Below, one piece after another: positions 4,259 through 60,800 of a stretch of 64,000 nt of DNA; the first letter of the stretch is position 1; each line of letters starts with the position of its first letter. The notes beneath the pieces were generated by a model that did no database searches, was not told where the DNA came from, and saw only the letters and a program-made list of their open reading frames with translations. The position numbers and the translations under genes were made by a program. Origin of the DNA: Candidatus Omnitrophota bacterium (lineage in GTDB: Bacteria > Omnitrophota > Omnitrophia > Omnitrophales > JACROU01); NCBI GenBank assembly GCA_029261035.1, contig JAJDCD010000025.1, positions 66,926 through 130,925 on the forward strand, in the 5' to 3' direction.

Positions 4259-4296
4259 CCTCCAAATTCTATTCTTTAATCAAATTACTATTTAAG

Positions 4297-5424: not shown

Positions 5425-7565
5425 TGTGAGTTTTGTAATGGCTCCGTCACATGCGTTAATTTAATCTCTTCTATCGAATCCAATACTTCTTCTACTGTAA
5501 TTTGTTTCATACAATCCAATTGAACTTTACTATGACAACTATTCGAATAACAAGGAGCACATTTAATCTGCTTCCAATGCACTCTGATCTTCTTTGAAGG
5601 AGGAACATGTTTCTCCGGAGAAGTCGGCCCAAAAAGAGCCACAACAGGAGTCAAAGAAGCTGCAGCGATATGTAATGGTGCCGAATCTGGGGTCACAAGA
5701 ACTCGAAACTTTTTAGTTAATGCAATCAACTCCCCCAAAGAAGTCTTTCCAACTAGATTAACAACCCCCTTAGAGTGCATTTGCAAAAACTTTTCGGCCA
5801 AATGATTCTCCTGAGCAGCCCCTATTAAAACAATACGTGCTTGATACTTTTTTTGGAGTTCTTCTGCTAAATGAACAAACCATTCCAAAGGCCAACGCTT
5901 TGTAACCCACTTAGAGCTGGCTCCTAAAGCAAACCCTACAAGAAACGCATCCTCGGACACCCAAGATTTTTCTAACTGCTTTCTTACTTGAAGCTCATCT
6001 CTAGAACTAGCCCATAACTCCAAACGGTCATCTAAAGTCTTTATTCCCAGCTCTTTTAAAAGCTGGAACTGATGATCTAAAGGCGGAATTAATTTATTAA
6101 ACCCCTTCGTTCCTCGATTCAATAAACGACCTCCTTTTCCTCGAATATAACCAAATCGTTCTGGAATTTGAGCTAAAAAAGCAAGGAGGTGCGTCTTAAA
6201 ATTATTTTGAAAATCTATAGATAAATCAAAACTACGATTACGAATCAAATAACACAAAGCAGGAAATCGAAAACCCAAACTCCACAAACGATCTCTTTTA
6301 AAAGGAATAATTTCATCTAAATAAGGGCACCCCTGCACTACTTTTATCCATTTTTCATCGACAAGAATGCTTATATGTGACTTAGGAAATTTTTCTTTCA
6401 ACATTCTTAAACTTGGAATAACTAGAACAAGGTCTCCCAAAGCTCCTAATTTTATTACCAATATTTTTTTCTCTCTTTGTAATTTCTCATAAACTTTTAT
6501 TGTTTTTTCAAACATAAGATCGAGAGAAAAGTTTTCTTCCACTTTCTTACGCAAAGCATGTGCATATTGAATACATAAGTCTTGGTTTTCAATCATCTTC
6601 ACCATAGCCTCTGACATAAGCACAGAGTTTGAGGGAGGAACAAGAAGTCCATTCACCTCATGATCCACAATCTCACTAACACCTCCCACACGCGTCGCCA
6701 CCACAGCAGTCCCAGATGCCGCAGACTCCACAATAACACGACCAAAGCCTTCCGGCGTCTTAGTTGACAGAACAAGTAAGTGCGCACGCTTCAATATCTC
6801 AGGGATATCATTGCGAGGCCCTAAAAACTGTACAACCTCTTTTAAATCTAATTCATCAACCAAATCTTTGAGATAGGCTTCTAGCTTTAGTCCCCTTTTC
6901 CCATTTGCTCCACCAACAATCCAAGCGCGTGTATGAGGGTGCTTTCGATGAACTAAATGAAAAGCTCTAATAAAATCCGAATGCCCCTTCAAAGAAGTAA
7001 TTCTGCCAATATTAACAATATTAAACTGAGACACATTGGATTGGTATTTTTCTATATTGAATTCAAAACTAGACAAATCCACTCCTCGATATATCAAATC
7101 CATACGTTCTTTTGTTACATTAAAATTTTCATGAATGTGATTACCAATAGCTTTAGAAATTACAATAACTCGTTTCCCAAATCCCATAACACGAGAAAAT
7201 ATATGTGTTGAATAATAACCATGACAAGTCGTTACAAACTGAACTCCCGTTTTTTTTCTCACTTTTTTACAAGCAAAATAAGCAATCCAAGCAGGTATTC
7301 GAGATCGGGCATGAACAATATCAATCTTCTCCCGAATCAACAAGTCAGCTAATTTACCGACAAGAAATAAAGAAGATAAAGATTTCTTATGCACAGGCAA
7401 GGAAATATGATGCACCTTTGCTTTCTCTAACTGTTTAACTAAAACACCTCCATTAGAAACCACATAAGGATCATGACCTCTCGCCTTAAGAGCTAAAGCC
7501 AAATCAATAGTTCCGCGTTCTACACCACCATGATTTAATTCTGGGAGAATTTGCAAAACTCTCAT
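5421..7565 (-). CDS. Bifunctional fusion of an N-terminal GT4 glycosyltransferase and a C-terminal GT9 heptosyltransferase
   Basis: 714 aa. Residues 1-355 carry GT4 motifs (LQILPELNHGGVERGTIDLA; EGFGRVIVESAASGTAVVATRVGG). Residues 360-714 carry GT9 motifs (ILVIKLGALGDLVLVIPSL; VTPDSAPLHIAAASLTPVVALFGPT; the CAPCYSNSCHSKVQLDC tail). The gene overlaps its neighbours by 4 nt. Confidence 0.65.
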   Translation of the reverse strand: MRVLQILPELNHGGVERGTIDLALALKARGHDPYVVSNGGVLVKQLEKAKVHHISLPVHKKSLSSLFLVGKLADLLIREKIDIVHARSRIPAWIAYFACKKVRKKTGVQFVTTCHGYYSTHIFSRVMGFGKRVIVISKAIGNHIHENFNVTKERMDLIYRGVDLSSFEFNIEKYQSNVSQFNIVNIGRITSLKGHSDFIRAFHLVHRKHPHTRAWIVGGANGKRGLKLEAYLKDLVDELDLKEVVQFLGPRNDIPEILKRAHLLVLSTKTPEGFGRVIVESAASGTAVVATRVGGVSEIVDHEVNGLLVPPSNSVLMSEAMVKMIENQDLCIQYAHALRKKVEENFSLDLMFEKTIKVYEKLQREKKILVIKLGALGDLVLVIPSLRMLKEKFPKSHISILVDEKWIKVVQGCPYLDEIIPFKRDRLWSLGFRFPALCYLIRNRSFDLSIDFQNNFKTHLLAFLAQIPERFGYIRGKGGRLLNRGTKGFNKLIPPLDHQFQLLKELGIKTLDDRLELWASSRDELQVRKQLEKSWVSEDAFLVGFALGASSKWVTKRWPLEWFVHLAEELQKKYQARIVLIGAAQENHLAEKFLQMHSKGVVNLVGKTSLGELIALTKKFRVLVTPDSAPLHIAAASLTPVVALFGPTSPEKHVPPSKKIRVHWKQIKCAPCYSNSCHSKVQLDCMKQITVEEVLDSIEEIKLTHVTEPLQNSH

Positions 7566-9502
7566 AATAGAGCCCTCAAGCTTTCCGAAATCTTTTTCTT
7601 ATCATCATAAATTAAACGTGTTCTTCGTTGATTCATCTCAACATCCAACTCTTTCTCAACATCAAAAGGATTCACAACGCGAAGCACTCCCTGTTTCTGG
7701 AGATGTTTTTGAAAACGATAATGTTTAGAAGCTAGACCTTTTGAGTTCATTTTCAAAATCAACACATCTTTCCCGCTTGCCACTCCTTCTGAAATCATGG
7801 ACACACTATCTTCTGAAACTAGGATCACATCACTTACGCCCATCATCTTCCGGGCAATTCCCTCTGGATTATCTTCATTAGCAATAACCAAAAGAGGCAC
7901 CTCTGGATGTTTCTCAAATTTATCTTTAAGCACTTTTTCGTATTGCTTAGACGTTCTTCTAGAAGTGGTTATGATCAATTTACAGTTATTCTTATGAACA
8001 AATCGATCCAAACCCTCCACAAATTGTTTGAAAAATTGTGGCGAAAAATCATACCCTTTGGTTTTACCCCCAAGAAAAACAGAAACAACCTTTTGGTGAT
8101 CCAAGTTCAATTCTTGCCTCAAAAGCTCTCCATCAATTTTTAATTGTTCTGAATCCACTAAGTTAGGCGCTACCCGCGTCAACAAAACCCCTTTAGATTC
8201 TTTTACGCGATCATGTTCAGGAATTAAACTTAAATCTGGTTTCATCAAATTAAAAGGAAACGGCCGCTTCATTAACACAATATTTTTAACTTGGAATTCC
8301 TTCTTTAAAATAAAATTAAGTGGCAAAACAGAAAAGCCACAGGAAACCACAAGGTCAGGTGCTGTTTGAACTAACTGTTCATAAGACTCTTTTTCAAGAA
8401 AAGCTTTCAAAACATGCATTCTCCCCTGAGACCAAGGTAAAAGAATCAAAGAAAATAGTGAAAACATGCGTTTAGCCCATTTGCTTTTATAACGAATTTG
8501 AACCGTATCTAATTTAAACTCGAAACGTTCGTCCAGCTCATCCAAATCTTTAATCATTTGAGCAATAGCTCTGGACTGAACTTCATGCCCCGGTTTTCCA
8601 TCCGACAAAACTACAATGTTTTTTGTCCAATTATATTTCCATCGTTTAAAAAACCACAGCCACTGTTCTGGAAACTGTGTAATGTATTTTTGTAAATAAT
8701 CCATATACTGCTGTGTGTATTTTTCTATATCTTTTTTCACATCATCTGTTTTCACAACTTCGATTGGCTCTTCAAAATAAATTCGATGTTGAGAACCTTT
8801 TTCTCTAACAAGAAAAGAGGTTTGTATAATAGAACCCGTTCGATAAGCAATTTCAATAATCCCTTGTGGCGCTGTAGTTTTTCGACCAAAAAAACGAACA
8901 GGGACCCCCTCTTTGCCTCCAGATTGATCTCCCAAAATTCCTAAGAGCCCATTTTCTCTACTTAATGCTCTTAGAATAGCTTTCACACCAGCTCCCTTGC
9001 GAATCATTTTAGATCCATGACATTCTCTTAACTTTGTCAAAAAATTTTCTAATCTTTTTAATTTTTGATCTTTTACGACAACATAAATAGGAAAACCTTG
9101 AAAACACCCCCAAAGACTTAATAATTCCCAGTTCCCAAAATGTGCCGTTAGAAAAACAACCCCCTTCGTTCTTTTAGCAATGCATGCGTCATAAATTTCT
9201 CTCCGGTATTCAACAACATGTTTATCAGAATAAGCTTGATTCATTTTTGGAAAATAAAGTATTTCCACAAAATTTTGAGCCAAATTCATATAGTTTTGAC
9301 GAATAATTTTCTTTAACTCTGGCCCTGAATACTGATTACCAAAAGCTATCTTAAGGTTTGCATACACTCGTTTAAATCGAATTCCTAGCAAAGCAAGAAA
9401 CCACCCGAAACAACGTGCGAAAAACAAAGATACTTTGACAGGCAAACATTGACACAAAAAAGCGGCAATTCTAACGAGAGTATAAGCTATTAAGTCGAGC
9501 AT
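7562..9502 (-). CDS. Lipid A late acyltransferase (LpxL/HtrB family) fused to a C-terminal ELM1/DUF1022-like predicted glycosyltransferase domain
   Basis: 646 aa. The N-terminal ~300 aa carry the TAHFGNWELL HX4E acyltransferase motif and the LGDQSGGKEGVPVRFFGR motif. The C-terminal ~340 aa resemble the ELM1-like domain. The ELM1 assignment rests on recalled family features. Confidence 0.55.
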   Translation of the reverse strand: MLDLIAYTLVRIAAFLCQCLPVKVSLFFARCFGWFLALLGIRFKRVYANLKIAFGNQYSGPELKKIIRQNYMNLAQNFVEILYFPKMNQAYSDKHVVEYRREIYDACIAKRTKGVVFLTAHFGNWELLSLWGCFQGFPIYVVVKDQKLKRLENFLTKLRECHGSKMIRKGAGVKAILRALSRENGLLGILGDQSGGKEGVPVRFFGRKTTAPQGIIEIAYRTGSIIQTSFLVREKGSQHRIYFEEPIEVVKTDDVKKDIEKYTQQYMDYLQKYITQFPEQWLWFFKRWKYNWTKNIVVLSDGKPGHEVQSRAIAQMIKDLDELDERFEFKLDTVQIRYKSKWAKRMFSLFSLILLPWSQGRMHVLKAFLEKESYEQLVQTAPDLVVSCGFSVLPLNFILKKEFQVKNIVLMKRPFPFNLMKPDLSLIPEHDRVKESKGVLLTRVAPNLVDSEQLKIDGELLRQELNLDHQKVVSVFLGGKTKGYDFSPQFFKQFVEGLDRFVHKNNCKLIITTSRRTSKQYEKVLKDKFEKHPEVPLLVIANEDNPEGIARKMMGVSDVILVSEDSVSMISEGVASGKDVLILKMNSKGLASKHYRFQKHLQKQGVLRVVNPFDVEKELDVEMNQRRTRLIYDDKKKISESLRALL

Positions 9503-10505
9503 CCAACTTTTCCTCCCCTGAAACTATTTTTAGTTTTACAGAGACAACCACAGGATCAATCCACTTATTCCAAATATCCTTTTGCCTCATCCAATCCTTC
9601 TCTGTAGTAAAGACTTCTTGTATCAAACCATCATCTTTTAATTTCTTTATTTTTTTTAATTCCTGAATTGAAAAATTATGATGATCTAAAAAATTAATTT
9701 TTTTCTCAACCCGAATACCCATACACTCTACCAATCGATAAAAGGATTCAGGAAATCCAATACCAGACACACAGGCTACGGACTGATTTAAAAATGAGCC
9801 CACTTTCAAAGATTCTTCTGAAGACGCTCTGAATAAATCCCTTAGCTCATGCTCCGCTTCAATCAAATCCGCTTCAGGCGCATAATGCTCAATCTTTTGT
9901 TTTAAAAAACTCTCATCATCCTGAGATAAAGAGCTCCTGTGCGTTAAGACAATAACATCAGCTCTGTTCAATTCGGATAAAGGCTCCCTTAAACTCCCAA
10001 GAGGAATAAGGTTATTTGTCCCAAAAGGGCAGGCTCCATTAATCAACAGAACATCAAGATCTCTCTTCAGCTGAACATGCTGAAAACCATCATCGAGTAA
10101 AGCAATATCAAAATCTCTTCCATTCAAATAACGTGTGGCTGTCTTATGTCTATCTTTACCAACAGCAATTAAAGCTTGAGGACAAGAAGACTCCAACTCC
10201 AAAACTTCATCATGAGAATACCCTCTTGTCAGTATCATCACTTTTTTAGACTGCTCTTCTATTTTTGAAGTCAGATACTTAATAAAAGGGGTTTTTCCCG
10301 TTCCGCCCCAAGTAATATTCCCAACACTCACAACAGGAAACGATAAGGAGTTCTTTCTCAAGATTCGATATTTAAAAGCAGCCTTTCTAATTCCTATAAT
10401 CACTGAATAAAAAATACTAGCGATAGTCAGAAAAGGCACTATTATTTTATCTGTCAAAGTTTCGGCACCTGACTCTGCAATTTTTTTCACTTTAAGCTTC
10501 ATCAC
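9471..10505 (-). CDS. lpxK: Tetraacyldisaccharide 4'-kinase
   Basis: 344 aa. P-loop VGNITWGGTGKTP. The length and lipid-A context fit LpxK. Confidence 0.75.
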   Translation of the reverse strand: MMKLKVKKIAESGAETLTDKIIVPFLTIASIFYSVIIGIRKAAFKYRILRKNSLSFPVVSVGNITWGGTGKTPFIKYLTSKIEEQSKKVMILTRGYSHDEVLELESSCPQALIAVGKDRHKTATRYLNGRDFDIALLDDGFQHVQLKRDLDVLLINGACPFGTNNLIPLGSLREPLSELNRADVIVLTHRSSLSQDDESFLKQKIEHYAPEADLIEAEHELRDLFRASSEESLKVGSFLNQSVACVSGIGFPESFYRLVECMGIRVEKKINFLDHHNFSIQELKKIKKLKDDGLIQEVFTTEKDWMRQKDIWNKWIDPVVVSVKLKIVSGEEKLDARLNSLYSR

Positions 10506-10647
10506 AAAATTCCCAACCGTTTATCTCATTCGATACAGCTTGATTCAAATCACAACACTTTATTTAAAACCTCATACTTTCGCACCTAGTGTGCCCGGCC
10601 TTTAGACCTGGAACACATTAAAGTGGCAACTCAACAGCCTCAACTAC

Positions 10648-11970
10648 TTATACCTTCTCAACAAACTGAGGCTGAGACACAAACTTCTCAATCCACTCCA
10701 CATGTTTCTGACTGGATCCTTGAAGGCGTTCAACAACAGCTTTTGCATTCCGACCTAATTCCATCTGACGTTTCTTATCTTTTAACAAATAACGTAATCG
10801 TGTCTCCAGCAAAGAATGGTCCGAAATCATTTGAACAGCATCATTCATCGCCAACTGTTGATAGACATCATGAAAATTGTATACGTGAGGGCCTGTTAAA
10901 ATAGGCTTTTCATAATAGGCTGGTTCAATTGGATTCTGACCTCCATGATGAATTAAACTTCCACCCACAAAAACAATGTCTGACATGAGGTAAAGGTCTT
11001 TCAACTTTCCTATCTGGTCTACAATTAAAATATCTTCTGCACTTATAGGAGAGACTGCGCATGAAAATAACTTTGGTTTCAAACCCACTCTAGTAACTTC
11101 TTCTGAAATCACTTCTGCTCTCTCGGGATGTCTAGGCACTAACAACAGTCTCAAATTAGGAAATTCTTTCTTCAAAGACACAAAAGCTTCTAATAAAAAT
11201 TTTTCTTCCTTTTCATGAGTACTTCCTGCAATCAAAATCTGATCTCCTAAAGAAAATCCAAGAGACGTCTTCATTTCATTAGAATTACTAACAGAAGAAA
11301 TCCCACTGATAATTTGGTCATACTTCATATTACCCATCAGCTTCACTTTTTCTTCAGTGATAAGTTGAGCAAAACGTTTAAAATCTAACTCGGATTGAAC
11401 TAAACAAAAATTAACGGAATTGAATATAGGCTTCATTAAAAAACCAACTTTCTGATACCCCCTTAAAGAATCCTCAGACATCCTTCCATTCACTATTCCC
11501 ACCACAATATTTTGTTGATGAGCAAGCTGCACAAAATTAGGCCAGATTTCTTTTTCTGCTAATAGAATTAAATCTGGTTTCAAAGCCTTCAAAACACGTC
11601 GAATTACAAAACTAAAATCTAGAGGAAAGTAAATTAAGATACAATCTAGAGACTCCGCAACTTTATAACCCGTAGGAGTTGTTGTAGATATCAAAACTAA
11701 ACTTTCAGGAAACTGCTGCTTCAACTGATGAATAAAAACCTTTAAAGACAATACTTCCCCTACACTGACCGCATGAATCCAAATCAGTTTCTTGCCCTGT
11801 TTTTTGTTTTTTTGGATTCTGCTCAGAATTTCAGGTTCAAACTTACCCCAGCGTTCATTCCAATACCGATTTCCATCCTCAGCCTGTTTAGAACGGAGCA
11901 AAAACTTAGGAAAGGAAAATAAAGCAAATACAAAAAATATAAAATCAAATAATAAAATACGTATAAACAA
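10648..11970 (-). CDS. waaA: 3-deoxy-D-manno-octulosonic acid (Kdo) transferase
   Basis: 440 aa. N-terminal membrane anchor. Motif KLIWIHAVSVGEVLS, the KdtA signature. The C-terminus is GT-B-like. Confidence 0.75.
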   Translation of the reverse strand: MFIRILLFDFIFFVFALFSFPKFLLRSKQAEDGNRYWNERWGKFEPEILSRIQKNKKQGKKLIWIHAVSVGEVLSLKVFIHQLKQQFPESLVLISTTTPTGYKVAESLDCILIYFPLDFSFVIRRVLKALKPDLILLAEKEIWPNFVQLAHQQNIVVGIVNGRMSEDSLRGYQKVGFLMKPIFNSVNFCLVQSELDFKRFAQLITEEKVKLMGNMKYDQIISGISSVSNSNEMKTSLGFSLGDQILIAGSTHEKEEKFLLEAFVSLKKEFPNLRLLLVPRHPERAEVISEEVTRVGLKPKLFSCAVSPISAEDILIVDQIGKLKDLYLMSDIVFVGGSLIHHGGQNPIEPAYYEKPILTGPHVYNFHDVYQQLAMNDAVQMISDHSLLETRLRYLLKDKKRQMELGRNAKAVVERLQGSSQKHVEWIEKFVSQPQFVEKV

Positions 11971-11995
11971 TATGATTACTCCTAAATATTTTAAA

Positions 11996-12901
11996 TTAAG
12001 CCCTAGGATGCGCTTGTTCGTACGATTCTTTTAAGCGCTTGGTGGACACGTGTGTGTATATCTGAGTCGTAGATAAATTTTGATGCCCTAAAAGCTCTTG
12101 AACACTTCTCAAGTCCGCACCTCGATCTAACATATGAGTTGCAAAAGAATGCCTTAACACATGAGGGGAGATTTCTTTTGCTAGAGAAATACGTCTAGCA
12201 TATTTAAGAACAATTCTACGAACACTTCTATCTGTAAGCCTCGTCTTTCCTTTATTAAGAAATAAAGCGCCTAATTCACTTTGATCGTCTCTTTTATTAA
12301 TATAGTCTTTCATTGCGTCCAAAGCTTTAGAGCCTACCGGCACCATACGTTCTTTCTTCCCTTTACCACGCACTTTGAGAACCTCGCCTAAAAAATCAAC
12401 GTCCTCAATATTGAGTCCCACCAGTTCACTAACACGAATCCCGCTAGAATATAATAACTCCAGAATCGACTTGTCTCTTTTTTCTATTTTAGTGTTCTTA
12501 GAGGGCGCCTCTAATAAATTGCTTATTTCTTGCTCTTCTAAATAGATAGGAAGTTTTTTATCTTTTTTAGGGGTAGCAATATTAACTGCAGGGTTCTCTT
12601 TTACAAGGTTTTCTCTGGTTAAGAATTTAAAAAAAGAACGAAGGCTCGCTAATTTTCTCGAAATCGTACTTTTGGAAAAATCTTTCTCTGATAAAAAGGC
12701 TAAATAACGTCTGATTTCCAAATAATCAATTTTTTCAATCTCTGTATCCTTGAAAAAATTAAAAAAACTTTGAAGATCAACAGAATAATTTGTTATGGTA
12801 TGACTAGAAGCATTTTTTTCTGCTTCTAAAAATGTCATAAACCGTGAAACCAAAGTTTGATGCCTATTTTTTTGTTTAACTGTTTTCTCTTTTATACTCA
12901 T
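11996..12901 (-). CDS. Tyrosine site-specific recombinase of the XerC/XerD family
   Basis: 301 aa. Catalytic-region motif HVLRHSFATHMLDRGADLRSVQELLGHQNLSTTQIYTHV. Confidence 0.7.
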   Translation of the reverse strand: MSIKEKTVKQKNRHQTLVSRFMTFLEAEKNASSHTITNYSVDLQSFFNFFKDTEIEKIDYLEIRRYLAFLSEKDFSKSTISRKLASLRSFFKFLTRENLVKENPAVNIATPKKDKKLPIYLEEQEISNLLEAPSKNTKIEKRDKSILELLYSSGIRVSELVGLNIEDVDFLGEVLKVRGKGKKERMVPVGSKALDAMKDYINKRDDQSELGALFLNKGKTRLTDRSVRRIVLKYARRISLAKEISPHVLRHSFATHMLDRGADLRSVQELLGHQNLSTTQIYTHVSTKRLKESYEQAHPRA

Positions 12902-12963
12902 AATTACTTATTCTCCCAATCTTTTTTTACTGCTCTAAACTCTAATTAAAATTCAAAGCAGGA

Positions 12964-13164
12964 CTATCCCCCACCTACAAATTGGACAATCTCTAAAACA
13001 TCTTCCTCTTTAAGAAAAGTATCTGAATACAGCCCCTTCTCTATAACTTGCTTATTTATTTCACAAACAACGGCTTCTTTTTTAATGCCGTTTTCCTCTA
13101 AAAACTGTTTTAAACTGACAGAAACATCACACTCCTGCTGCTTTCCATTAACCGTTAAAAACAT
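12964..13164 (-). CDS. thiS: ThiS/MoaD-like sulfur-carrier protein
   Basis: 66 aa. Begins MFLTVNGK and ends in Gly-Gly (VQFVGGG). Confidence 0.5.
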   Translation of the reverse strand: MFLTVNGKQQECDVSVSLKQFLEENGIKKEAVVCEINKQVIEKGLYSDTFLKEEDVLEIVQFVGGG

Positions 13165-13270
13165 AACTATTCCCTCTGGATATGAATTAAGACTTCAAGA
13201 TGATAGCTCATTCTTATAGGACGTATTTTATCAAAATACTACAGGATGTAAAGTGGTAATTATAGGACGT

Positions 13271-13711
13271 TTATGCGGATTCCTGGTCTTCTGGGGGGTC
13301 TTTCTTTTTTCTCTTTCTCTTACTTTTATTTTTTTCAGGCTCTAAGCTAAAAAGATGCTCTAGATGTAGAATTTGGGAATCTTCTACCGCTTCTTCCTCA
13401 ATTCTTCGAATGAGTGCACTAAAATCCTCTTCTTTCATTTCTAGGTATTCTAAACATATTGTAGTCAATAGACGGGTTATTAAATTGGACTGAATTTCCA
13501 AATCCTGAAGACGATCATTTGCTTCTGAAACTTGTTCCCAAATTTTATCAATATGTGTTTTAAGGTATTCAAGATCCATTGGAGGCGCAGTGGCTTTACC
13601 CTTAGACACCTTCTTCGATGCTCTAGCGGAAGTTTTCTTTGGAGCTTTCTTTTTGACTATTTTTTTCGACTTTTTTTTCATCAATTCACACCTATAAAGA
13701 AAGAGTAACAT
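13271..13711 (-). CDS. Hypothetical protein with Lys-rich termini. Candidate histone-like, nucleoid-associated protein.
   Basis: The likely start is the internal MKKKSKKIVKKKAPKKTSARASKKVSKGK. It has an acidic coiled-coil centre and a C-terminal KNKSKRKRKKKD. Confidence 0.4.
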   Translation of the reverse strand: MLLFLYRCELMKKKSKKIVKKKAPKKTSARASKKVSKGKATAPPMDLEYLKTHIDKIWEQVSEANDRLQDLEIQSNLITRLLTTICLEYLEMKEEDFSALIRRIEEEAVEDSQILHLEHLFSLEPEKNKSKRKRKKKDPPEDQESA

Positions 13712-13810
13712 AAAATCAATTAATTAACGAATGAACAAAAAAGCATACTAACAGGCATAAAAAAGGGCAAAACAAGATCTTTGAAAAGAAATTGTCTTAC
13801 CCTAAAAAAA

Positions 13811-14413
13811 CTATTTACTATACGTAACTCTTGTTTTGGCGTAGGCGTCTATTAAACGTTCTCCGCCCTCTGGCTGCTCTCTATCCAATAATAAGAACAG
13901 GGCTAACACAGCAACAATAGGAAGTACAAGTAAACCAGAAACAGCCGCTGGAGAAAGAAAAGCGGTAATCGTTCCGATCGTAAAAATAACAATTCCTACT
14001 AAATACCAAACTCTTCTTACTAAAAGGCTAGGAAATACAATTCGAGCAAATTCACCCACATAACCACCCACTAAAACAATAGGTATAATTAAATGAATAT
14101 TACGAATTAAAGCTTGTGCAAATGTTATTTTCCCACCCACAAGACTTACAATTTTAGCATCAGCCATCCATCGACCTGGAGAAAAAACCAAGTCTCTAAA
14201 GATCATCCAACCTGCATTAACTAAGATCAACACCGTATTACGAACAATTTCAGGAGCAGAAAATAATGCTAATGCGGCCAAAACACCCAAAGCAAGTGGC
14301 ATAATAAGTAAATCAAAAATACAAGCAAGAGCTCTTCTTCTACGTTTAATGACTTCAGGGCTACCAACAGAACTCGATGATACTTGTTCTCCACCCCCTA
14401 TATTTTCTTCCAT
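13811..14413 (-). CDS. RDD-family integral membrane protein
   Basis: 200 aa. It has 3-4 predicted TM helices. The IFRDLVFSPGRW motif is RDD-like. Confidence 0.5.
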   Translation of the reverse strand: MEENIGGGEQVSSSSVGSPEVIKRRRRALACIFDLLIMPLALGVLAALALFSAPEIVRNTVLILVNAGWMIFRDLVFSPGRWMADAKIVSLVGGKITFAQALIRNIHLIIPIVLVGGYVGEFARIVFPSLLVRRVWYLVGIVIFTIGTITAFLSPAAVSGLLVLPIVAVLALFLLLDREQPEGGERLIDAYAKTRVTYSK

Positions 14414-14559
14414 AATAAAACTCCTTTCATATACCTCTATTACTAAAATTCATCCAAATAAAAGTTATAAAGACAGATCATTAATTACATTATCGACCAA
14501 ACACCCTTCATCTTTAAGTATACACGATAAGGAGTATACATAGAATCCTTACTCAGGCA

Positions 14560-15735
14560 TCAAGAAACTTTCTCAAATAAACCGCCCCACCTTCGACTGA
14601 CTTTCTTCTTCATTTCTAAGGATGTTAAAACCTTTAGAGTTTCTGTCACTGAGCATGAAAGCTCATCACTCATCGACTGAGAGTCCTTTGGCTGCTTTAA
14701 ATTATCGAGAAACAATGCTTCTTTTGGCGTCAATACCACAGGGGTTTCAATTCCAACTCGAGTAGAGTTGATTTGCACCGAATTCACATTCTCCCCTTCA
14801 TTAAAATCAAGCTCATATTTATCTTTTAACTGAGGGCTTAAATCTTCAGCAATTTCTGCTGCTGAAGTTACTAACTTAGCACCCTCTTTAATAAGCTGAT
14901 TCGTTCCTAGAGAGTAAGGGCTATTAATTTGACCAGGAACAACATATACTTCACGACCTTCATCCATACCTTGATGTGCTGTTATTAAAGACCCACTTTT
15001 TTGACCTGCTTCTACAACTAAAATACCTAAGGACAACCCTGCAATAATTCGATTTCTTTTAGGAAAATAATAAGGTCGGGGTTGTGTTCCTAAAGGAAAT
15101 TCACTCACCACAGCACCTTGCTCTACAATAGACTGATAAAGAGAAGCATTTTCTTTTGGATAAATAACATCAACTCCACATCCCAAAACAGCAATTGTTC
15201 TACCCTGAACTCGAAGAGCTCCTTCGTGGCTCATCTTATCTATACCACGAGCTAAACCCGAACAAATAGTAAAACCTCTATCTGCTAATTCAGAAGCAAA
15301 TTGCAAAGCTGTTTGATGGCCATAAATGGATGCTTTTCGAGAACCCACAATCCCAATGGACTGACGATCCTCTGGAAAGAGATGTCCTTTAACATAAAGT
15401 AAAATAGGAGGATCATAGATCTCAGACAAACTTTTTGGATAACGAGGATCAACATAAGAGATTAAATGAATATTTTGTTCATGACAACGATCTAGAATAA
15501 CATTTGGACGTACTTCGGAAGATGCTGCCACAATTCGGTTTGCAAGCTCTAAAGAAATATCTACATTCTGAACCATAGTGTGCGCGTTTCGACAACGAAC
15601 AATTTCCTCATAGTTACCAAAAAAATCTACGAGTTTTTGAAGTTTCTTAACACTCAAACCTTCGACAGAAGAAAGCACAATCAATTCTTTAAGCATGAGC
15701 CAACCCTTTATTGCTTGGCAGAAAATAGAGTCCAA
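14560..15735 (-). CDS. dprA: DNA processing protein A (DprA/Smf)
   Basis: 391 aa. Motif GIDKMSHEGALRVQGRTIAVLGCGVDVIYPKEN in a Rossmann-like DprA core. Confidence 0.75.
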   Translation of the reverse strand: MDSIFCQAIKGWLMLKELIVLSSVEGLSVKKLQKLVDFFGNYEEIVRCRNAHTMVQNVDISLELANRIVAASSEVRPNVILDRCHEQNIHLISYVDPRYPKSLSEIYDPPILLYVKGHLFPEDRQSIGIVGSRKASIYGHQTALQFASELADRGFTICSGLARGIDKMSHEGALRVQGRTIAVLGCGVDVIYPKENASLYQSIVEQGAVVSEFPLGTQPRPYYFPKRNRIIAGLSLGILVVEAGQKSGSLITAHQGMDEGREVYVVPGQINSPYSLGTNQLIKEGAKLVTSAAEIAEDLSPQLKDKYELDFNEGENVNSVQINSTRVGIETPVVLTPKEALFLDNLKQPKDSQSMSDELSCSVTETLKVLTSLEMKKKVSRRWGGLFEKVS

Positions 15736-15769
15736 TTAACCGATAAAAAATTACTTCTAAGATTTCCTG

Positions 15770-15877
15770 TTACTTATAAAAGAAAGCCCAAAGATAATCG
15801 TTAGCAGCGAACTTAAAAAAGTGCACTAAGCCAAAACCAATTAAAAGACCTAAAATAAATTTTATTTTTTTAGCCAT
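15770..15877 (-). CDS. Small hydrophobic ORF of 35 aa, a possible membrane peptide. It is below the ORF-track size cutoff.
   Basis: ATG at 15877 and TAA at 15770. It translates to MAKKIKFILGLLIGFGLVHFFKFAANDYLWAFFYK. It lies in the dprA-aroB gap. There is no homology support. Confidence 0.2.
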   Translation of the reverse strand: MAKKIKFILGLLIGFGLVHFFKFAANDYLWAFFYK

Positions 15878-15948
15878 GATTTTTCCTCAAATAAACGAAT
15901 TCTAAATATAAACTCTGAAAAATAACGCTATTTTTTCAGATAGAGGAA

Positions 15949-17043
15949 CTAAAGAACCGTTTTTAATATCTCTTCGATGAGAGATGGTGAAATCCCTTTC
16001 ACAGCTGCCAATTCTCCAATAGATTGAGGAAGAATAAATTTCACTTCACCTTTCCTCACCTTCTTATCTACCAAAAAATACTTTGCAACTGCTTTAGGTT
16101 TCAACCTCATTCCTTTGAGGGATGTAGGAAGTCCTGCAGATTGGATTAAACGAAGCTGTCTATCTAACACATTGCGTTTAATAAAACCAAGACGATACGC
16201 CATCTCACATGCAGCTACCATTCCCACACTCACTGCTCTTCCATGCGTGATTTTTTCATAACCCAAAGCGGCTTCAAATGCATGACCAAATGTATGGCCA
16301 TAATTTAAAATATCTCTAAAACCTTGAGTTTCATCAACGTCTGATTCTATCACAAAAACTTTAATTTTTGAAGATTCTAAAACTATTTTTTCCAAAATCT
16401 TAATATTCCCCTTGGCGGCCTTCGAAATATTCTTCTCTAACCAAGGGTATAAAGCCCCCCCTTGAATCATTCCATACTTCACAACTTCTCCCAAAGAGTC
16501 AGAAATAGTCTGTTTTGATAGGGTTTTCAACAATGAAATATCCGAGAAAATAGCCTTAGGTTGATAAAAAGTACCCGCTAAATTCTTACCTGATTTTAGG
16601 TTAATTCCCGTCTTACCCCCAATTGAACTATCTACTTGAGCTAAAAGAGTAGTTGGAATCTGTATATACCCTACCCCTCTTTTATACGTCGATGCGGCAA
16701 ACCCTGTCACATCTCCAACCGTTCCACCTCCAAATGCAATTACAAAAGAGGCTCTATCCAACTTACTTTTCAGCATCGCATCATATAAACGGAACAACTC
16801 TCTCTGACTCTTGGCAACTTCCCCATCCGGTAAAATATGAAAAACAGGTTTCATTTTTGCTTTTTTAAGTACTGCTGAAATATAAGGTTTATGCTTTCTC
16901 AGAATTCGGTTCTGACTCACTACCAAAATATTCCCCTCCGCTCCTACTGATTTTAAAAATGAAGGAAGTTTTTGGGAAAGCACTCGAGATCCTATGAAAA
17001 TAGGATGGGAATCTTTTCCTAAATTTACTAAAATTTTATACAT
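15949..17043 (-). CDS. aroB: 3-dehydroquinate synthase
   Basis: 364 aa. Motifs GGGTVGDVTGFAASTYKRGV and IPTTLLAQVDSSIGGKTGIN. Confidence 0.85.
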   Translation of the reverse strand: MYKILVNLGKDSHPIFIGSRVLSQKLPSFLKSVGAEGNILVVSQNRILRKHKPYISAVLKKAKMKPVFHILPDGEVAKSQRELFRLYDAMLKSKLDRASFVIAFGGGTVGDVTGFAASTYKRGVGYIQIPTTLLAQVDSSIGGKTGINLKSGKNLAGTFYQPKAIFSDISLLKTLSKQTISDSLGEVVKYGMIQGGALYPWLEKNISKAAKGNIKILEKIVLESSKIKVFVIESDVDETQGFRDILNYGHTFGHAFEAALGYEKITHGRAVSVGMVAACEMAYRLGFIKRNVLDRQLRLIQSAGLPTSLKGMRLKPKAVAKYFLVDKKVRKGEVKFILPQSIGELAAVKGISPSLIEEILKTVL

Positions 17044-17047
17044 AGAT

Positions 17048-17566
17048 TTAAAAACTTTCTTTTTTTAAATTAAAATTATCACAAATTTCCTTTGCTACCG
17101 ATTCTGCAGACTTACCATCTGTATCCACCTTTAAATTAAATTGATTATAAAGAAGATCTCTACTTTTCAGAATATATTCTAATGTTTTTTTGGGATCATC
17201 TGACTTTAATAAAGGTCGATGGGTTCGATGTTTTACTCGAGACCACAGTGTATCTGCTCCTGCTTTCAAATAAATTACCTGTCCTGTTTGATTCATCAAA
17301 TCCACATTCCCCTGCCGAAGAACAATACCACCACCCGTAGCAACAACTTGTCTCTCTCTTAAAGATACTTTCTCTAAAAGATTTGATTCCACATCTCTAA
17401 AAGCCTCTTCACCTTTTGAACTAAAGATATCCTGAATAGAGATTTTCTCTTGAGCTTCAATCTCAGTATCTAAATCCACGAAACGATACTGGAGTAAATC
17501 AGCAAGCTCTTTTGCTGTCACAGATTTACCCGAACCCATCATTCCAACTAAATAAATATTATTCAT
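17048..17566 (-). CDS. aroK: Shikimate kinase
   Basis: 172 aa. P-loop IYLVGMMGSGKSVTAKELA. Confidence 0.8.
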   Translation of the reverse strand: MNNIYLVGMMGSGKSVTAKELADLLQYRFVDLDTEIEAQEKISIQDIFSSKGEEAFRDVESNLLEKVSLRERQVVATGGGIVLRQGNVDLMNQTGQVIYLKAGADTLWSRVKHRTHRPLLKSDDPKKTLEYILKSRDLLYNQFNLKVDTDGKSAESVAKEICDNFNLKKESF

Positions 17567-17596
17567 GATTTGAATACTCTAATGAAAAATTAAACT

Positions 17597-26285: not shown

Positions 26286-26327
26286 GTCATTGCAATGCAT
26301 TGGACTTTGAGCCGTGGCAATCTCAGA
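26286..26327. repeat. Solo copy of the 42-nt gtcattgcNNN...gccgtggcaatctcag element
   Basis: It has the same ends as the inverted repeats bracketing the GIY-YIG gene at 49265-49306 and 49612-49653. Confidence 0.5.
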
Positions 26328-49180: not shown

Positions 49181-49264
49181 ATTTTACTTAATAGTGAGTC
49201 AAATGTCTGAGATTACTTCGTCGGCATTTAATTCAACTCCTCGTAATGACAATCTCTCTGAGTC

Positions 49265-49653
49265 CGTCATTGCGAGCATCAACAAAAGATGCGTGGCAAT
49301 CTCAGGAGTAATGGTTATAAAGTTTCGTAAAGATCATTAAATTCTGGATTAAACTTTTGAATTAACTCTAATTTCTTTTTTCTCGATCCTGCTTTTATTT
49401 GCTTTTCCCTCTCTATTGCAGTTCTAATATCATCTGCTACTTCAAAGTAAATTAACTTATCCAAGTTATACTTTTTAGAAAAACCATCAGTGAGCTTTTT
49501 CTTATGCTCAAAAATTCTTTTCTTAAGATCGCTGGTAACACCCGTATAGATTGTAGTGTTGTTCTTATTTGTTAAGAAGTATATATAACCTGATTCATCC
49601 ATTTTTCTATGCCTGAGATTGCCGCGGCCTTTTTGTCGCTACCTCGCAATGAC
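49265..49653. mobile_element. Candidate miniature mobile element: a GIY-YIG nuclease gene bracketed by 42-bp terminal inverted repeats
   Basis: Left arm, 49265-49306: gtcattgcgag-N14-gcgtggcaatctcagg. Right arm, 49612-49653, is the inverted gtcattgcgag-N14-gccgcggcaatctcagg. Both ctcagg ends face the ORF. Solo copies of the arm occur at 26286, 56561 and 57815. Confidence 0.45.
49315..49602 (-). CDS. Small GIY-YIG (URI-domain) nuclease of the UPF0213/COG2827 type
   Basis: 95 aa. Begins GYIYFLTNKNNTTIYTGVTSDLKKRIFEH, where GxIY...YTG is the GIY-YIG core. It is the size of stand-alone URI nucleases. Confidence 0.75.
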   Translation of the reverse strand: MDESGYIYFLTNKNNTTIYTGVTSDLKKRIFEHKKKLTDGFSKKYNLDKLIYFEVADDIRTAIEREKQIKAGSRKKKLELIQKFNPEFNDLYETL

Positions 49654-56560: not shown

Positions 56561-56599
56561 GTCATTGCGAGGCATTGGTAATGAAGCCGTGGCAATCTC
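56561..56599. repeat. Solo copy of the gtcattgcgag...gccgtggcaatctc 42-nt element
   Basis: The sequence is gtcattgcgaggcattggtaatgaagccgtggcaatctc. It is the same family as the GIY-YIG inverted repeats. Confidence 0.5.
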
Positions 56600-56608
56600 T
56601 ATCTCTGA

Positions 56609-57214
56609 CTATTTTTCCTTCAATATTTTCTTATGAATTTCCAGCAAAGGTTGGATATTACCTTGATCTGCTTCTTTTAATGCTGCTAGATAGGTCTTTC
56701 TAAAGGTCTTTTCGATGAACAGTTCATCCTCAGGCCATTCCAAGTAAGCTCCCAATTCACCTTTTAAGTAAAGGTTGGTAATTAATCGAGCCCACCTTCC
56801 ATTCCCATTACTAAAAGGATGAATCCAAACAAGTCGGTGATGCAAAAGAGCAGAAATCTCTATAGCATCTCTACCCTTCTCAACCCAATAAGAAAAATCC
56901 TCTTCTAGCTTTTTAAGTTCCGTAGAAATCTTATAAGGTTCAACACCCACATTAAACCCTACACTTCTAACTTTCCCTGCCCAATTCCAAACATCACAAA
57001 ACATATCTTTATGAACCCTCAAGAAAAAATGCATATCATATTTAACAGCTTCTTTAGAACTCAGGTTTAAATAATACTTCGTCAATGCTTTATTGATATT
57101 AATAAACTCAGCTTCAAACAGCTCCTCCCTTGTTGATAAATCTTGCTTTAGCCCAGAAATATCATCCAAAGGCGTCGCTCCTAATGGAGTTGATTGACTT
57201 AATTTTCTCGCCAT
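56609..57214 (-). CDS. Fic/Doc-family protein (Fido fold, candidate AMPylator)
   Basis: 201 aa. Fic motif IHPFSNGNGRWARLITN. Its start overlaps the upstream HTH gene by 16 nt. The pair resembles the HTH plus Fic pairs found on mobile elements. Confidence 0.75.
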   Translation of the reverse strand: MARKLSQSTPLGATPLDDISGLKQDLSTREELFEAEFININKALTKYYLNLSSKEAVKYDMHFFLRVHKDMFCDVWNWAGKVRSVGFNVGVEPYKISTELKKLEEDFSYWVEKGRDAIEISALLHHRLVWIHPFSNGNGRWARLITNLYLKGELGAYLEWPEDELFIEKTFRKTYLAALKEADQGNIQPLLEIHKKILKEK

Positions 57215-57690
57215 AAAACATCTCGATGCTTTGTCATAATTTGTTTTTTTAACTCTTCTACCTGTTCTTCAATTAAATCAGATGGAGGCTTCTGAGATTC
57301 CATAGCAGCATTCGCAACAGAAAGCTCTATAATCTCTCTCGCTTTCTCCTCCGCTTTTTTATCTATAAATGCAGCAATATCTTCTTTGGGAACAAGTTGA
57401 ATTAACAGCTCACAATTCAAACCTTCTGCAATTTTTTTTAACGTAGAAAGTCTCGGATCCACAGACTCATTCTCCACACGAGATAACATCATCTGCTCTC
57501 CATGAACTCGCTTAGCTAATTGCACCTGAGTCATTCCAAGTGCCTTTCTCATCAACTTCAACTGCCGACTCACAGCCTGCCTCAACGCAAGCCACTGCGG
57601 CAACTCCCCAACCGTATGGTACTTTCCACTAAATCGAACTAACTCTCTCTTGGTTTTCATATCTCTCACCTCTATATAATTATAATACAT
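57199..57690 (-). CDS. XRE-family helix-turn-helix protein, a putative regulator or antitoxin partner of the Fic protein
   Basis: 163 aa. HTH segment LRKALGMTQVQLAKRVHGEQMMLSRVE. It overlaps the fic start. An AT-rich promoter-like tract lies upstream at 57676-57730. Confidence 0.65.
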   Translation of the reverse strand: MYYNYIEVRDMKTKRELVRFSGKYHTVGELPQWLALRQAVSRQLKLMRKALGMTQVQLAKRVHGEQMMLSRVENESVDPRLSTLKKIAEGLNCELLIQLVPKEDIAAFIDKKAEEKAREIIELSVANAAMESQKPPSDLIEEQVEELKKQIMTKHRDVLWREN

Positions 57691-57842
57691 ATATGATATA
57701 TTTCAATATATATTTATATATTTTAATACTTCCCATATGGGCCCGGGCCTGAATGAGGAGGGCCTGAACGAGGTGCTAAATAGAAGAAAAGGTCATTGAG
57801 AGGCTTTAACAAAAGAGCCGCGGCAATCTCGGGGAATTGGAT

Positions 57843-57894
57843 AAAGGGGACAGGCAACTTTTCTATTTGTTAAAAAAAGTAGCCTGTCCCCTTT
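57843..57894 (-). terminator. 13-bp-stem hairpin immediately after the stop codon of giant gene 2
   Basis: The stem is aaaggggacaggc / gcctgtccccttt. The 27-nt loop contains a T-run. The hairpin overlaps the TAA at 57893-95. Confidence 0.35.
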
Positions 57895-60800
57895 ACGCTG
57901 CCGCCGCTACAAGCTCTTCAGCTTGGAACTGGGCATACACCTTATTTAATAGGGTTGTAATGAAACTGGCCCCAATAACCCATTCTTGACCATCAGGCTT
58001 GAAGCCGGCTTTGAGAAAAAGCTCCTCTCGAAGATCAGGGTAATTGGCTAATTGACGTAAGAGGGCTACGACCTGGACAGGATCTACTCCATTACCTGAC
58101 AACACTTCTAAGTCAAGACGTACTCGATCTCCGTTACTGAAAATCATCTGGAATACATTTTCGTTTGGACTCACCCAAATACCTGGCACCTCATATTTTC
58201 TTAATGAAGCTCTAAAAATTTCTGGATTCAAAAGCTCTCGACGCACATCTTTAAGTTTAAATTGTTTTCCAGGTAACTTATATAGAGCTTGAAGAAACTC
58301 CGGCTTACCTCTCCCCTCCCACGTTACCATCAACAAATCTTTTTTCTGCATCATGCTATTAAACTGAGATGCACTTCTTTCAGGGTCGTCCACATGACTT
58401 AAAATGATGTCATCCACGATCAGTGGAATGGGTTTATTGACTTCAGCTTCTAGCAACCCCGAAACTTCCAAAGATAAATATTGAGTCATCACCTCTAAGG
58501 ATTGATTAAAATCTATAATACGAGGATCTATGATTCGATCTACTGTATCTTCCAAAACTCCCATACGAATAAGTAAACTTTTAATAACCTCTAATGGAGA
58601 ATTTGGCATAAATAAGATTTGCCCTGCAAAGGCTTGAGCAACTTGAATCATTCCTTCAACCGAAACATCTCGCGCTTTAATTTGAGTTAAAGCAGGTTCT
58701 GCTCCCAAACTCTGCGCTTCAGCTCTGAGCCATTCTTCTTCCGGACCACTCAGTTCGTTCGCCTCATCTCCAGACTCTCGTTTCCATAATTCTGATAAAG
58801 TTTTTAACTGGTTTATAACTAAATCAAATCCTATACCTTCCTCTTTTTCTAGAATCATCAAAACCTCTTCCCCTCTTTTTGCTTTGATTAAATTTGCTCC
58901 ATATTTACCCTCAATAAACCATCTTAAAAAATTATTTTGAAAATCAACTTTTTTACTAATATCCTTCTCAGCTAACAACGTATCAAAAATAACAGAAAAA
59001 GCTTTTTCAATTCTTTCCAACTGTTTTAGTTTTTTATTTTCATCTAATACTGAAGGCATAGCTAAGAAAAGAAAAACCACTAAGGGTAAATAGCGCTTTT
59101 CTTCTTTGGCCAACCTTATAATTTGATCTCTCAAAAATGAGTCTGTTGCATATCCAAATTGAACCATCTCAGATAGATGGGAAAACACCTTAGGCAAAGG
59201 ATCATCCACATAAGGAACATAAAAACGATATATCAGAATTATAAACTCAATATTAAATATAGGGTGACGAACACCCATTTGTTCTTCTAATAAGATTTGA
59301 TTCCATATATGAATAGCTCCGGATAAACGTCTAGCTCTAACATTGGTCAACAACTCCTTTAAACCATCAAGTAATTCGTCCAAAGAAATGGTCACACGTC
59401 GTTTTGAAATGCTTGTAACCATTTCTTGTATTGCTTTGATAGAGTTTCTTGACAAATCTTTATCATGTTCAGCTATAAACTTCTGCCAAATTCTAAAAGT
59501 GTTAATATCATGAATGAATTTATACTCAAATAATACTTCTAAAAGCCTTAGTATTTCTTCCCCTCTAAAAAAGGTCTCAAATCCAAAAATTTTGGACTCA
59601 GCATCTGGTTTAAAAAATGCTCGTTGAAATTTTTCATCCAGTTTTGTTGACGGGCCTATTATCTGAGTCAAAGAAGAATTATCATACTTTTGTCTTATAT
59701 TCGAGTACGCCCCTAAACTCTGCGCATCCACTCTTAACCACTCAGGTTCCTCTCCTTCTGACTCAATACTTTCGAACGGCCCTTCTTTTCCCCAAACATC
59801 TGCTATTTGCCTTAGCTGTTCTAAAACTTTTTCCTCTCCAACAGCATCTTTTCTTCTTATAATCTCTAAAACCTCCTCCGTTCTAAACATTCCGTTAGAA
59901 CTTACTGTTAATCGTTCCCATACATCTAATCCTAATCTAGGCTCCTCCATACTCTCCATAAAAATCAAATATTCCATTAGAAAATTCGGATCTAATACTC
60001 GGCCACTCCTTTCCACCTGTTCAAGAAAACTACCAACAACTTCAAAAGAAGAAGAAATTGTAAAAATGTCATTCATTTCTACCACCTTACTGAGCCTTTC
60101 CCAGAGATCAGAATGGAGAACATCCTTATCTATCAATTCTTTTTTTATCAAAAAACCTAGGGTTCTTAACAGAGTAAAAGTACTTGTAAAAGAATCCTTG
60201 TTCAAATGAGCAAACCTAAATAATAAATTAATATCCAAAACTTGTTCATCAGCTCTCCCTGACTTCACAGCCACCCCCAACTCTACAAGCTGCTCAAAAC
60301 TGCCCATCTCCCGCAAATCATAATATTGAGCCATTATAATGAACAGTTCCTCATTCCATAATTTTTCTGGAATCCTCTCCTCTGCTATGCCGGTTTCCAT
60401 CCGTAACAAATCCTCTATAAGAGGTTGTATTTCCTTTGAATTCACCTGAACAAGCGCTTCCAAAAAATCTAAATTAAATCTTTCTATCCTTCGTCTTTTC
60501 TCTAGCAGGGAGTCTCCTAACTGTTCGATAGCTTGAAAAGACGTGATTCTATTATCCCTACTCCCTTTACTAACTATTTCAAAAATTCTTTCTATTTTTT
60601 CTAATTCACTTACATCTTTAAAAATTTCTGTTAAAACGATAAATGCCTCCATAGCCGCTTCTTCATCTTCAAGCACTTCAACTAACCCAGAAAAGTCCTG
60701 CTCAAACGCTTCCCACTCCATGTCCAGCCCCTCTAAAAGACCAGCCTCTTCATATCTATCACGAGCTCCTAAACTTTTTGCAGAAATGATGACGGGTGCC

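Follow-up and report, generated by a model that had tools for sequence, protein, structure and literature searches.

The locus considered here raises the question of what a helix-turn-helix (HTH) protein and a small Fic protein, encoded by two overlapping genes, do together in the genome of an Omnitrophota bacterium. The genes lie on the minus strand between positions 56609 and 57690 of a stretch of 64,000 nucleotides of contig JAJDCD010000025.1, referred to below as the window; homologues of the nearby hom gene product carry the name Candidatus Omnitrophica. The first gene, A, encodes an HTH protein of the XRE family and the second, B, a stand-alone Fic protein. It is proposed, at a probability of about 0.6, that the pair is a type II toxin-antitoxin (TA) module of the addiction type, with a class I-like Fic architecture and an autoregulating HTH antitoxin.

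In such a module the two genes would constitute a self-contained, translationally coupled operon. B would be a small Fic enzyme without an inhibitory helix of its own, the free form of which modifies an essential cellular target, probably by nucleotide or phosphoryl transfer. A would bind B via its C-terminal two-helix domain and place residue Glu121 (within NAAMESQ; family consensus [T/S]xxLExQ) in the active site of the Fic protein, up against R143, the second arginine of its motif. This placement would either block productive ATP binding or turn the complex into a de-modifying enzyme, and the N-terminal XRE HTH domain of A would repress the AT-rich promoter of the operon. Xre-Fic/Doc pairs have been catalogued before as predicted TA systems (PMC2701414).

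Family identity and gene structure of the pair

Gene B (56609..57214, minus strand) encodes the putative toxin, a protein of 201 aa. It matches TIGR02613 (mobile mystery protein B) with 155.4 bits, at a cutoff of 124.4 and over profile positions 1-184 of 186, and Pfam Fic with E=2e-14. The product of gene A, the putative antitoxin and autorepressor, matches Pfam HTH_3 (E=1.3e-10) with a DNA-binding domain at aa 34-85 (57406..57561, minus strand; numbering of the 153-aa form described below). Both assignments made in a first-pass annotation of this DNA, to the Fic and XRE-HTH families, were borne out by these profile searches. The best NCBIfam match of A is TIGR02612 (mobile mystery protein A), aligned over profile positions 18-150 of 150. 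The first-pass annotation had noted a likeness to the mobile mystery A/B pair; this identity stands for B, and for A it holds in a weaker form, TIGR02612 being the best match at a score under the cutoff. Judged from its profile matches, A is a divergent mobile mystery A-type partner, and the 13 close relatives retrieved with it show 30-52 % identity.

The pair is a member of a named family that is already known, without an established mechanism. The name mobile mystery A/B is about two decades old, and the description of TIGR02613 refers to a mobile-element or plasmid context. Like other members, the window pair has an upstream HTH partner, proteins of ~150 and ~200 aa, the same gene order and tight coupling, its B protein exceeds the curated cutoff, and the family is often found on plasmids. 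Unlike these, it has an A protein that scores under the cutoff and represents a divergent branch, and it is chromosomal, in an Omnitrophota genome, with no recognisable mobile-element genes near. A profile search with mobile mystery B returned 432 cluster representatives (clustered at 50 % identity) at E<=1e-30, nearly all of ~200 aa. Five homologues (P0280, P0302, P0304, P0308 and P0315) carry C-terminal extensions of 120-150 aa past the Fic domain. No solved structure of a mobile mystery A/B member was found; the nearest PDB sequences, FICD and VbhT, match in the Fic core only.

The start of gene A had to be revised. The first-pass annotation had given a 163-aa HTH protein, which corresponds to the maximal open reading frame (ORF) reaching 57690. 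This frame is judged to be over-extended because its ATG at 57690 sits upstream of the -10 hexamer, inside a near-consensus promoter, because the ATG at 57660 is preceded by a Shine-Dalgarno sequence (GAGGTGA) and yields 153 aa, and because the 153-aa form was also called, independently, on a short-read contig of 100 % identity (Logan, SRR15505516). Gene A thus probably extends over 57199..57660 (minus strand). The other elements of the earlier description, namely the coordinates, the minus strand, the 201-aa Fic protein and an overlap of 16 nt, were retained. The overlap, between the stop of A and the start of B (57199..57214, minus strand), is suggestive of translational coupling, and its length is ordinary for the mobile mystery A/B family: of 78 pairs, 56 have overlapping genes and in 21 the genes are no more than 30 nt apart, the commonest overlap being 4 nt and 6 pairs overlapping by 16 nt. 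All 36 ORFs of at least 95 aa in the window (1-64000) are on the minus strand, including giant genes of 4668 and 1986 aa.

The linkage of the two genes is strict. A scan of GTDB, using one genome per species, revealed at least 551 loci encoding relatives in many phyla, among which Aminicenantes, Planctomycetota, Campylobacterota, Omnitrophota, Chlamydiota, Alpha- and Gammaproteobacteria, Spirochaetota, Actinomycetota and Saccharibacteria. Pairing was counted in the best 80 loci, and in 78 of these an A homologue is located immediately upstream of B. Homologues were also found on 248 plasmids in PLSDB (Agrobacterium 99, Rhizobium 50, Vibrio 17, Sinorhizobium 17, Coxiella 15). A phage origin was rejected, as none of 50,697 phage records contained a homologue. 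At four homologous loci the pair is an isolated two-gene insert in unrelated neighbourhoods consisting mostly of housekeeping genes; one of the four adjoins a transposase-like gene and one adjoins a PIN pair.

The predicted structure of A fits a DNA-binding antitoxin. An AlphaFold2 (AF2) model shows helices at residues 30-80 with a predicted local distance difference test (pLDDT) score of 91-96, and Foldseek retrieved as nearest structures the HipB and HigA2 antitoxins, Cro/c2 repressors and controller proteins of restriction-modification systems. The HTH domain is closest to HipB and HigA2 both in structure and in sequence, and the logic expected from the HipB/HigA systems is that of a DNA-binding antitoxin which autoregulates its own operon. 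The window pair differs from them in that the partner is a Fic enzyme rather than a HipA kinase or a HigB RNase, and in the C-terminal, toxin-binding domain, which is unrelated.

The candidate inhibitory glutamate and the Fic active site

Within the Fic protein a conserved [ST]xxxE[GN] motif was not found among 34 family members. The N-terminus of B is too short for the class II position, since the alignment with FIC-1 of C. elegans begins at query residue 36, ~36 residues past the inhibitory Glu of FIC-1, and the C-terminus is too short for the class III position. The invariant E36 of B was considered as an internal class II glutamate and rejected: it lies mid-helix, a Phe comes after it, and the class II position is ~36 residues farther upstream. 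On these alignments, B is without an inhibitory helix of its own and classes II and III are excluded.

A candidate for the missing element was found in the partner. The segment NAAMESQ of A (aa 117-123; 57292..57312, minus strand) was identified from the translation and an alignment of 79 partner proteins as a candidate inhibitory-helix (alpha-inh-like) motif. C-terminal invariants common to the partners from 79 loci are A107, E121, Q123 and W150; when the aligned proteins are counted, Glu121 is the single invariant residue of A (79/79), and Gln123 and Leu/Met120 are each found in 77. Glu121 lies outside the HTH, in the C-terminal domain. The position four residues before it is occupied by T in 43, S in 19, H in 11 and N in 6 partners. 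The pattern [ST]xxxE occurs in 62 of the 79, and the complete (S/T)xxxE(G/N) motif in 13. The first-pass annotation had reported no clear inhibitory helix and had named SDLIEEQ (aa 127-133) as the closest match. That segment was rejected, as it falls at variable alignment columns, and NAAMESQ takes its place; the latter was missed because the positions flanking its Glu on either side do not fit the textbook motif.

In the AF2 model of the window protein a helix spanning residues 95-120 stops immediately before E121. The corresponding helix of a natural fusion homologue, P0006, comprises residues 71-95 and is confidently predicted. The fusion was modelled from a shallow block alignment of 13 A and 5 B sequences, deeper MAFFT alignments placing A onto the Fic half. 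In P0006 and in a second fusion, P0319, a complete A is joined to B at an identical junction. Two further fusions, P0271 and P0382, have only the C-terminal domain of A, which contains a canonical SxxxE[GN] motif (SFSLEG and SMKLEN, respectively), directly N-terminal to Fic, a class II-like arrangement. The natural fusions support a physical interaction between A and B. The layout of a Fic toxin or modulator with a partner, as originally described for this locus, is supported by the family identity, by the pairing in 78/80 loci and by the conservation of Glu121, and appears the best description of the pair.

Class I Fic TA systems (VbhT/VbhA, EcFicT/EcFicA and Fic-1/AntF) are the closest model for such a module. 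How class I systems work, and what the Glu does in them, has been established for VbhA/VbhT and AntF/Fic-1 (PMC3667792, PMC13327609). The window pair shares with these systems a small Fic protein without internal inhibitory helix, encoded just downstream of its partner, and a partner family in which a motif of the [S/T]xxxE type, located where a helix ends, contains an invariant Glu (PMC3667792, PMC13327609). In addition, VbhT and EcFicT are the closest solved folds to the window-type Fic: in a Foldseek search the Fic half of the fusion model reached target-normalised template modelling scores (TMt) of 0.62-0.67 with class I VbhT/EcFicT versus 0.52-0.57 with class II CdFic, a search that confirms the Fic fold only. 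There are also clear differences. The window partner is ~150 aa with an N-terminal XRE HTH, whereas class I antitoxins are ~60-aa, helix-only proteins; the A-family motif is [T/S/H/N]xxLExQ instead of (S/T)xxxE(G/N); an Asn replaces D/E in the Fic motif; and the partners of the two groups are without detectable sequence homology.

The Fic active-site motif of B, HPFSNGNGRWAR, comprises aa 132-143 (56786..56821, minus strand) and has Asn136 where D/E, the Mg-binding residue, is canonical. Degeneration of the motif, a possibility that the first-pass annotation had raised, is not seen: in 34 Fic homologues H132, G137, N138, G139, R140 and R143 (window numbering) do not vary and N136 is conserved to at least 90 %, and therefore HPFxNGNGRxxR can be regarded as the signature of the family, intact and with Asn at D/E family-wide. 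By comparison with the class I Fic motif, Asn136 is the only deviation, all remaining positions being as expected. The Asn was found in 81 of 81 GTDB loci, but since the scan pattern itself contained Asn, the alignment of 34 homologues is preferred as evidence.

The Asn bears on the chemistry of B. In adenylylation-competent Fic complexes the D/E residue coordinates the catalytic Mg2+ (PMC3667792), it has been suggested that D-to-N variants lack activity (PMC4454073), and the E139A variant of Fic-1 lost AMPylation but retained de-AMPylation in complex with its antitoxin (PMC13327609). Doc is a kinase, and its consensus, HxFx(D/N)(A/G)NKR, allows Asn (PMC4257102). The Doc consensus and the Fic-1 variant, together with the family-wide N136 at the Mg-binding position, are what speaks for a non-toxic or chemically different Fic protein, acting in a kinase-like manner as Doc does, solely as a de-AMPylase or as a regulatory modifier, with the HTH protein as a transcription factor and co-factor in place of an antitoxin. 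Such a role is considered unlikely, although on account of Asn136 a chemistry other than AMPylation has to be reckoned with. As in AMP-transferases, neither the GNGR anion nest nor the two arginines vary, and an addiction module would better account for the strict linkage of the two genes, their occurrence on plasmids and their patchy phyletic distribution. A Doc-like enzyme in particular is disfavoured: although the Doc/Phd system likewise contains a Fic-fold toxin whose consensus permits Asn at the D/E position (PMC4257102), window B has GNGR where Doc has NKR and so lacks the Doc-defining Lys, it scores 25.9 with TIGR01550 at a cutoff of 38.65, and its antitoxin candidate is an HTH protein and not of the Phd or AbrB type.

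A TA module of the class I-like type is the preferred reading, and several observations weigh against it. With Asn in place of D/E, AMPylation may be lost. The window motif NAAMES has Asn in place of S/T and Ser in place of G/N around the conserved Glu. A profile of the C-terminal domain of A searched against PDB sequences retrieved no VbhA, FicA or AntF, and gave only chance matches (V-ATPase subunit E, E>3). In the AF2 model of fusion P0006 the domains are confident, with an overall predicted template modelling score (pTM) of only 0.53. The HTH protein reaches 75.1 bits with TIGR02612, well short of the cutoff of 122.6. Finally, an experimental paper on any mobile mystery A/B member was not found in the literature.

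Apart from the active site, a segment near the N-terminus of the Fic protein, GxTPLDDxSGL (aa 12-22; window 57149-57181), is highly conserved, T14 and P15 being nearly invariant and L22 invariant. It is predicted to be unstructured in the fusion model (pLDDT <50) and could serve as a site for a partner, a target or a pseudo-substrate.

Promoter, genomic site and flanking repeats

The pair has its own promoter. A sigma-70-type sequence, TTGAAA-N16-TATAAT (57679..57706, minus strand), matches the consensus at 11 of 12 positions and lies within the AT-rich promoter tract at 57676-57730 that had been described in the first-pass annotation. This tract is 92.7 % AT, the most AT-rich 55-mer of the 64-kb window, and AT-rich imperfect palindromes at 57688-57739 overlap the promoter. 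Upstream of the pair, a strong hairpin (57842..57895, minus strand) covers the stop codon of the giant gene next to it, referred to as giant gene 2; its 21-nt arms are 95 % complementary, the folding free energy is -20.5 kcal/mol (z = -8.0) and it is not followed by a T-run. The hairpin likely insulates the pair from upstream transcription. Because of the strong promoter of its own and this hairpin, the pair looks transcriptionally autonomous.

Two tandem 14-mers, GGGCCTGAAYGAGG (57745..57773, plus strand), to which no function is assigned, are present as described earlier, at 57745-57758 and 57760-57773; the distance to the -35 hexamer, which lies downstream of them, is 39-67 nt. With up to 2 mismatches allowed, the window contains no other copy, and an equivalent was not found in the relatives or in any fetched locus. 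A role as structured element or dispersed repeat was rejected, as there is no significant fold and there are no further copies.

The neighbours of the pair in the window are hom/thrC and the giant gene. The site was compared with five loci from four related lineages, L082 (hom 77 % identical), L083 and L084 (70 %; the same hom protein, P0143, from two samples), L085 (69 %) and L086 (70 %). The genes hom, thrC and those for phosphoglycerate mutase and aspartate kinase are kept in all five, and leuA and valS also in L082-L085, the four loci that are long enough. Upstream of hom, four of the five loci have genes for ETF-QO, an aminotransferase and SpoU, and L086 (7700-9830) has those for an AAA ATPase and a T5orf172/MUG113 protein. 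Neither the HTH-Fic pair nor giant gene 2 is present in any of the five. Universal conservation of the pair at this position, which the first-pass annotation had taken as an argument against mobility, is thus not what is found: the five related loci keep the downstream synteny without the pair upstream of hom. Since similarity to the DNA of the nearest relative is regained only ~50-60 nt before the start codon of hom, the pair is located at a synteny breakpoint or rearrangement point, in a slot that is variable among relatives. No close relative came up when GTDB genomes were scanned with the hom protein, and the genome of the window is not represented among the GTDB loci retrieved for the family. 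Farther upstream of hom, L083 has a Gp49/HTH_37 (HigB/HigA-like) pair at 445-1085. In L082 three consecutive ORFs for lysine- and alanine-rich, histone-H1-like proteins are found at 4822-6192, with no counterpart in the window.

Could the pair nevertheless be an ancestral, fixed and non-accessory gene pair of this lineage? Its GC content is near the window mean (Fic 0.363, HTH 0.407; mean 0.373 +/- 0.021), and no integrase or transposase gene is adjacent to it. This explanation is very improbable and is largely refuted by the absence of the pair upstream of hom in 5/5 related loci, by the nearest Fic homologue anywhere being 57 % identical while the flanking housekeeping proteins have 77-87 % relatives, and by the scatter of the family over many phyla and plasmids. 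Base composition is uninformative as evidence of transfer, as GC is barely deviant, the HTH gene at third codon positions (+2.7 standard deviations) being the sole outlier. Acquisition by mobile DNA, as suggested in the first-pass annotation, is supported no more than indirectly: genes for an integrase or transposase are missing next to the pair, its composition does not help, and the flanking repeats are of a REP-like kind found genome-wide and not proven to be ends of a cassette. Taken over all comparisons, the cassette is to be seen as accessory in the Omnitrophota genome.

The repeats deserve closer attention. Two direct copies of a 39-nt element resembling repetitive extragenic palindromic (REP) sequences, with the pattern GTCATTGNGAGGC...GCCGYGGCAATCTC, bracket the pair. 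The upstream copy (GTCATTGAGAGGC...GCCGCGGCAATCTC; 57792..57830, plus strand) was found in a repeat search, and the downstream copy (56561..56599, plus strand), in direct orientation, lies 10 nt past the Fic stop and is 77 % identical overall, with conserved ends. The fragment at 57816-57830 that had been taken for a solo copy of the terminal repeat of a GIY-YIG gene indeed exists, but it is not solo in view of the second direct copy at 56561-56599. The element, which resembles REP sequences or miniature inverted-repeat transposable elements (MITEs), can be written as GTCATTGCGAG-N15-20-GGCAATCTC and has six copies in the window (26286-26324, 49209-49250, 49266-49303, 49615-49653, 56561-56599 and 57792-57830). 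Three of the six surround a 95-aa GIY-YIG ORF (49315-49602, minus strand). The nearest relative, L082, has 12 copies in 21 kb (3598-17571), some of them in tandem arrays around the orthologous GIY-YIG gene, and more distant relatives have none. Because of these six and 12 copies and the absence from distant relatives, the 39-nt sequence is regarded, by its occurrence, as a lineage-specific, proliferating REP/MITE-like repeat.

The bracketing hints at, without proving, movement of the cassette with the element. On this view, the 1.27-kb segment 56561-57830 would be a composite mobile unit delimited by the two direct 39-nt repeats, and recombination at the GIY-YIG-associated repeats would have brought the cassette in or be able to excise it. 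The exact bracketing fits this proposal, as do the same element around the GIY-YIG ORF at 49315-49602, the return of homology to relatives only ~50-60 nt upstream of hom and a break of the short-read assembly within the upstream copy, where the contig of identical sequence starts at window position 57805. It is quite unlikely all the same. As the element proliferates intergenically, two flanking copies can arise independently, and as giant gene 2, outside the bracket, is likewise missing from the relatives, the breakpoint is larger than the bracket. Moreover, an empty site with a single repeat was not found and the two copies are merely 77 % identical.

The surroundings of the pair also bear on a possible role in anti-phage defence, as an abortive-infection module in which the HTH protein restrains Fic until infection and Fic then shuts the cell down. 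This would be compatible with a TA mechanism. The window Fic protein is similar by hidden Markov models to PDC-S04 (E=9.3e-23; a model without curated cutoff) and, more weakly, to SoFic (E=9e-13) of PADLOC; TIGR02613 has been counted among the defence/TA cargo of Tn7-like transposons (PMC8649781); and one Fic homologue, as mentioned, adjoins a PIN pair. PDC-S04, however, is an unverified, single-gene candidate that gave no defence in one native-host test (bioRxiv 10.1101/2024.12.20.629700), and SoFic, unlike the window protein, is an enzyme of class II, 361 aa long, that contains its own inhibitory helix. With hom/thrC and a giant gene as neighbours there is no defence island around the window pair, and the four homologous contexts examined consist mostly of housekeeping genes. 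Evidence of phage defence by the mobile mystery A/B family was not found in the literature. A dedicated defence function is on balance fairly unlikely, and the addiction-type module remains the favoured explanation.

Significance for the mobile mystery A/B family

As a locus, the one in the window is ordinary, a further accessory cassette at a point where an Omnitrophota genome has been rearranged. Of somewhat greater interest is the hypothesis that follows at the level of the family, that of an HTH-borne inhibitory Glu together with an Asn-variant Fic. Mobile mystery A/B pairs are widespread yet without a mechanism, and the plasmids that carry them include replicons of Agrobacterium, Rhizobium, Vibrio and Coxiella. 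The invariant Glu of A and the family-wide Asn of the Fic protein provide a testable hypothesis on the control of the module and on AMPylation. It is tentatively suggested, at somewhat less than even odds, that mobile mystery A/B may be an unrecognised class I-like branch of Fic systems inhibited by an antitoxin, in which the inhibitory Glu, which might also catalyse de-modification, resides on an XRE-HTH repressor and the Asn implies an altered metal dependence or a chemistry that differs from standard AMPylation. If this is true, the fusions P0271 and P0382 would document a transition from class I to class II within one family.

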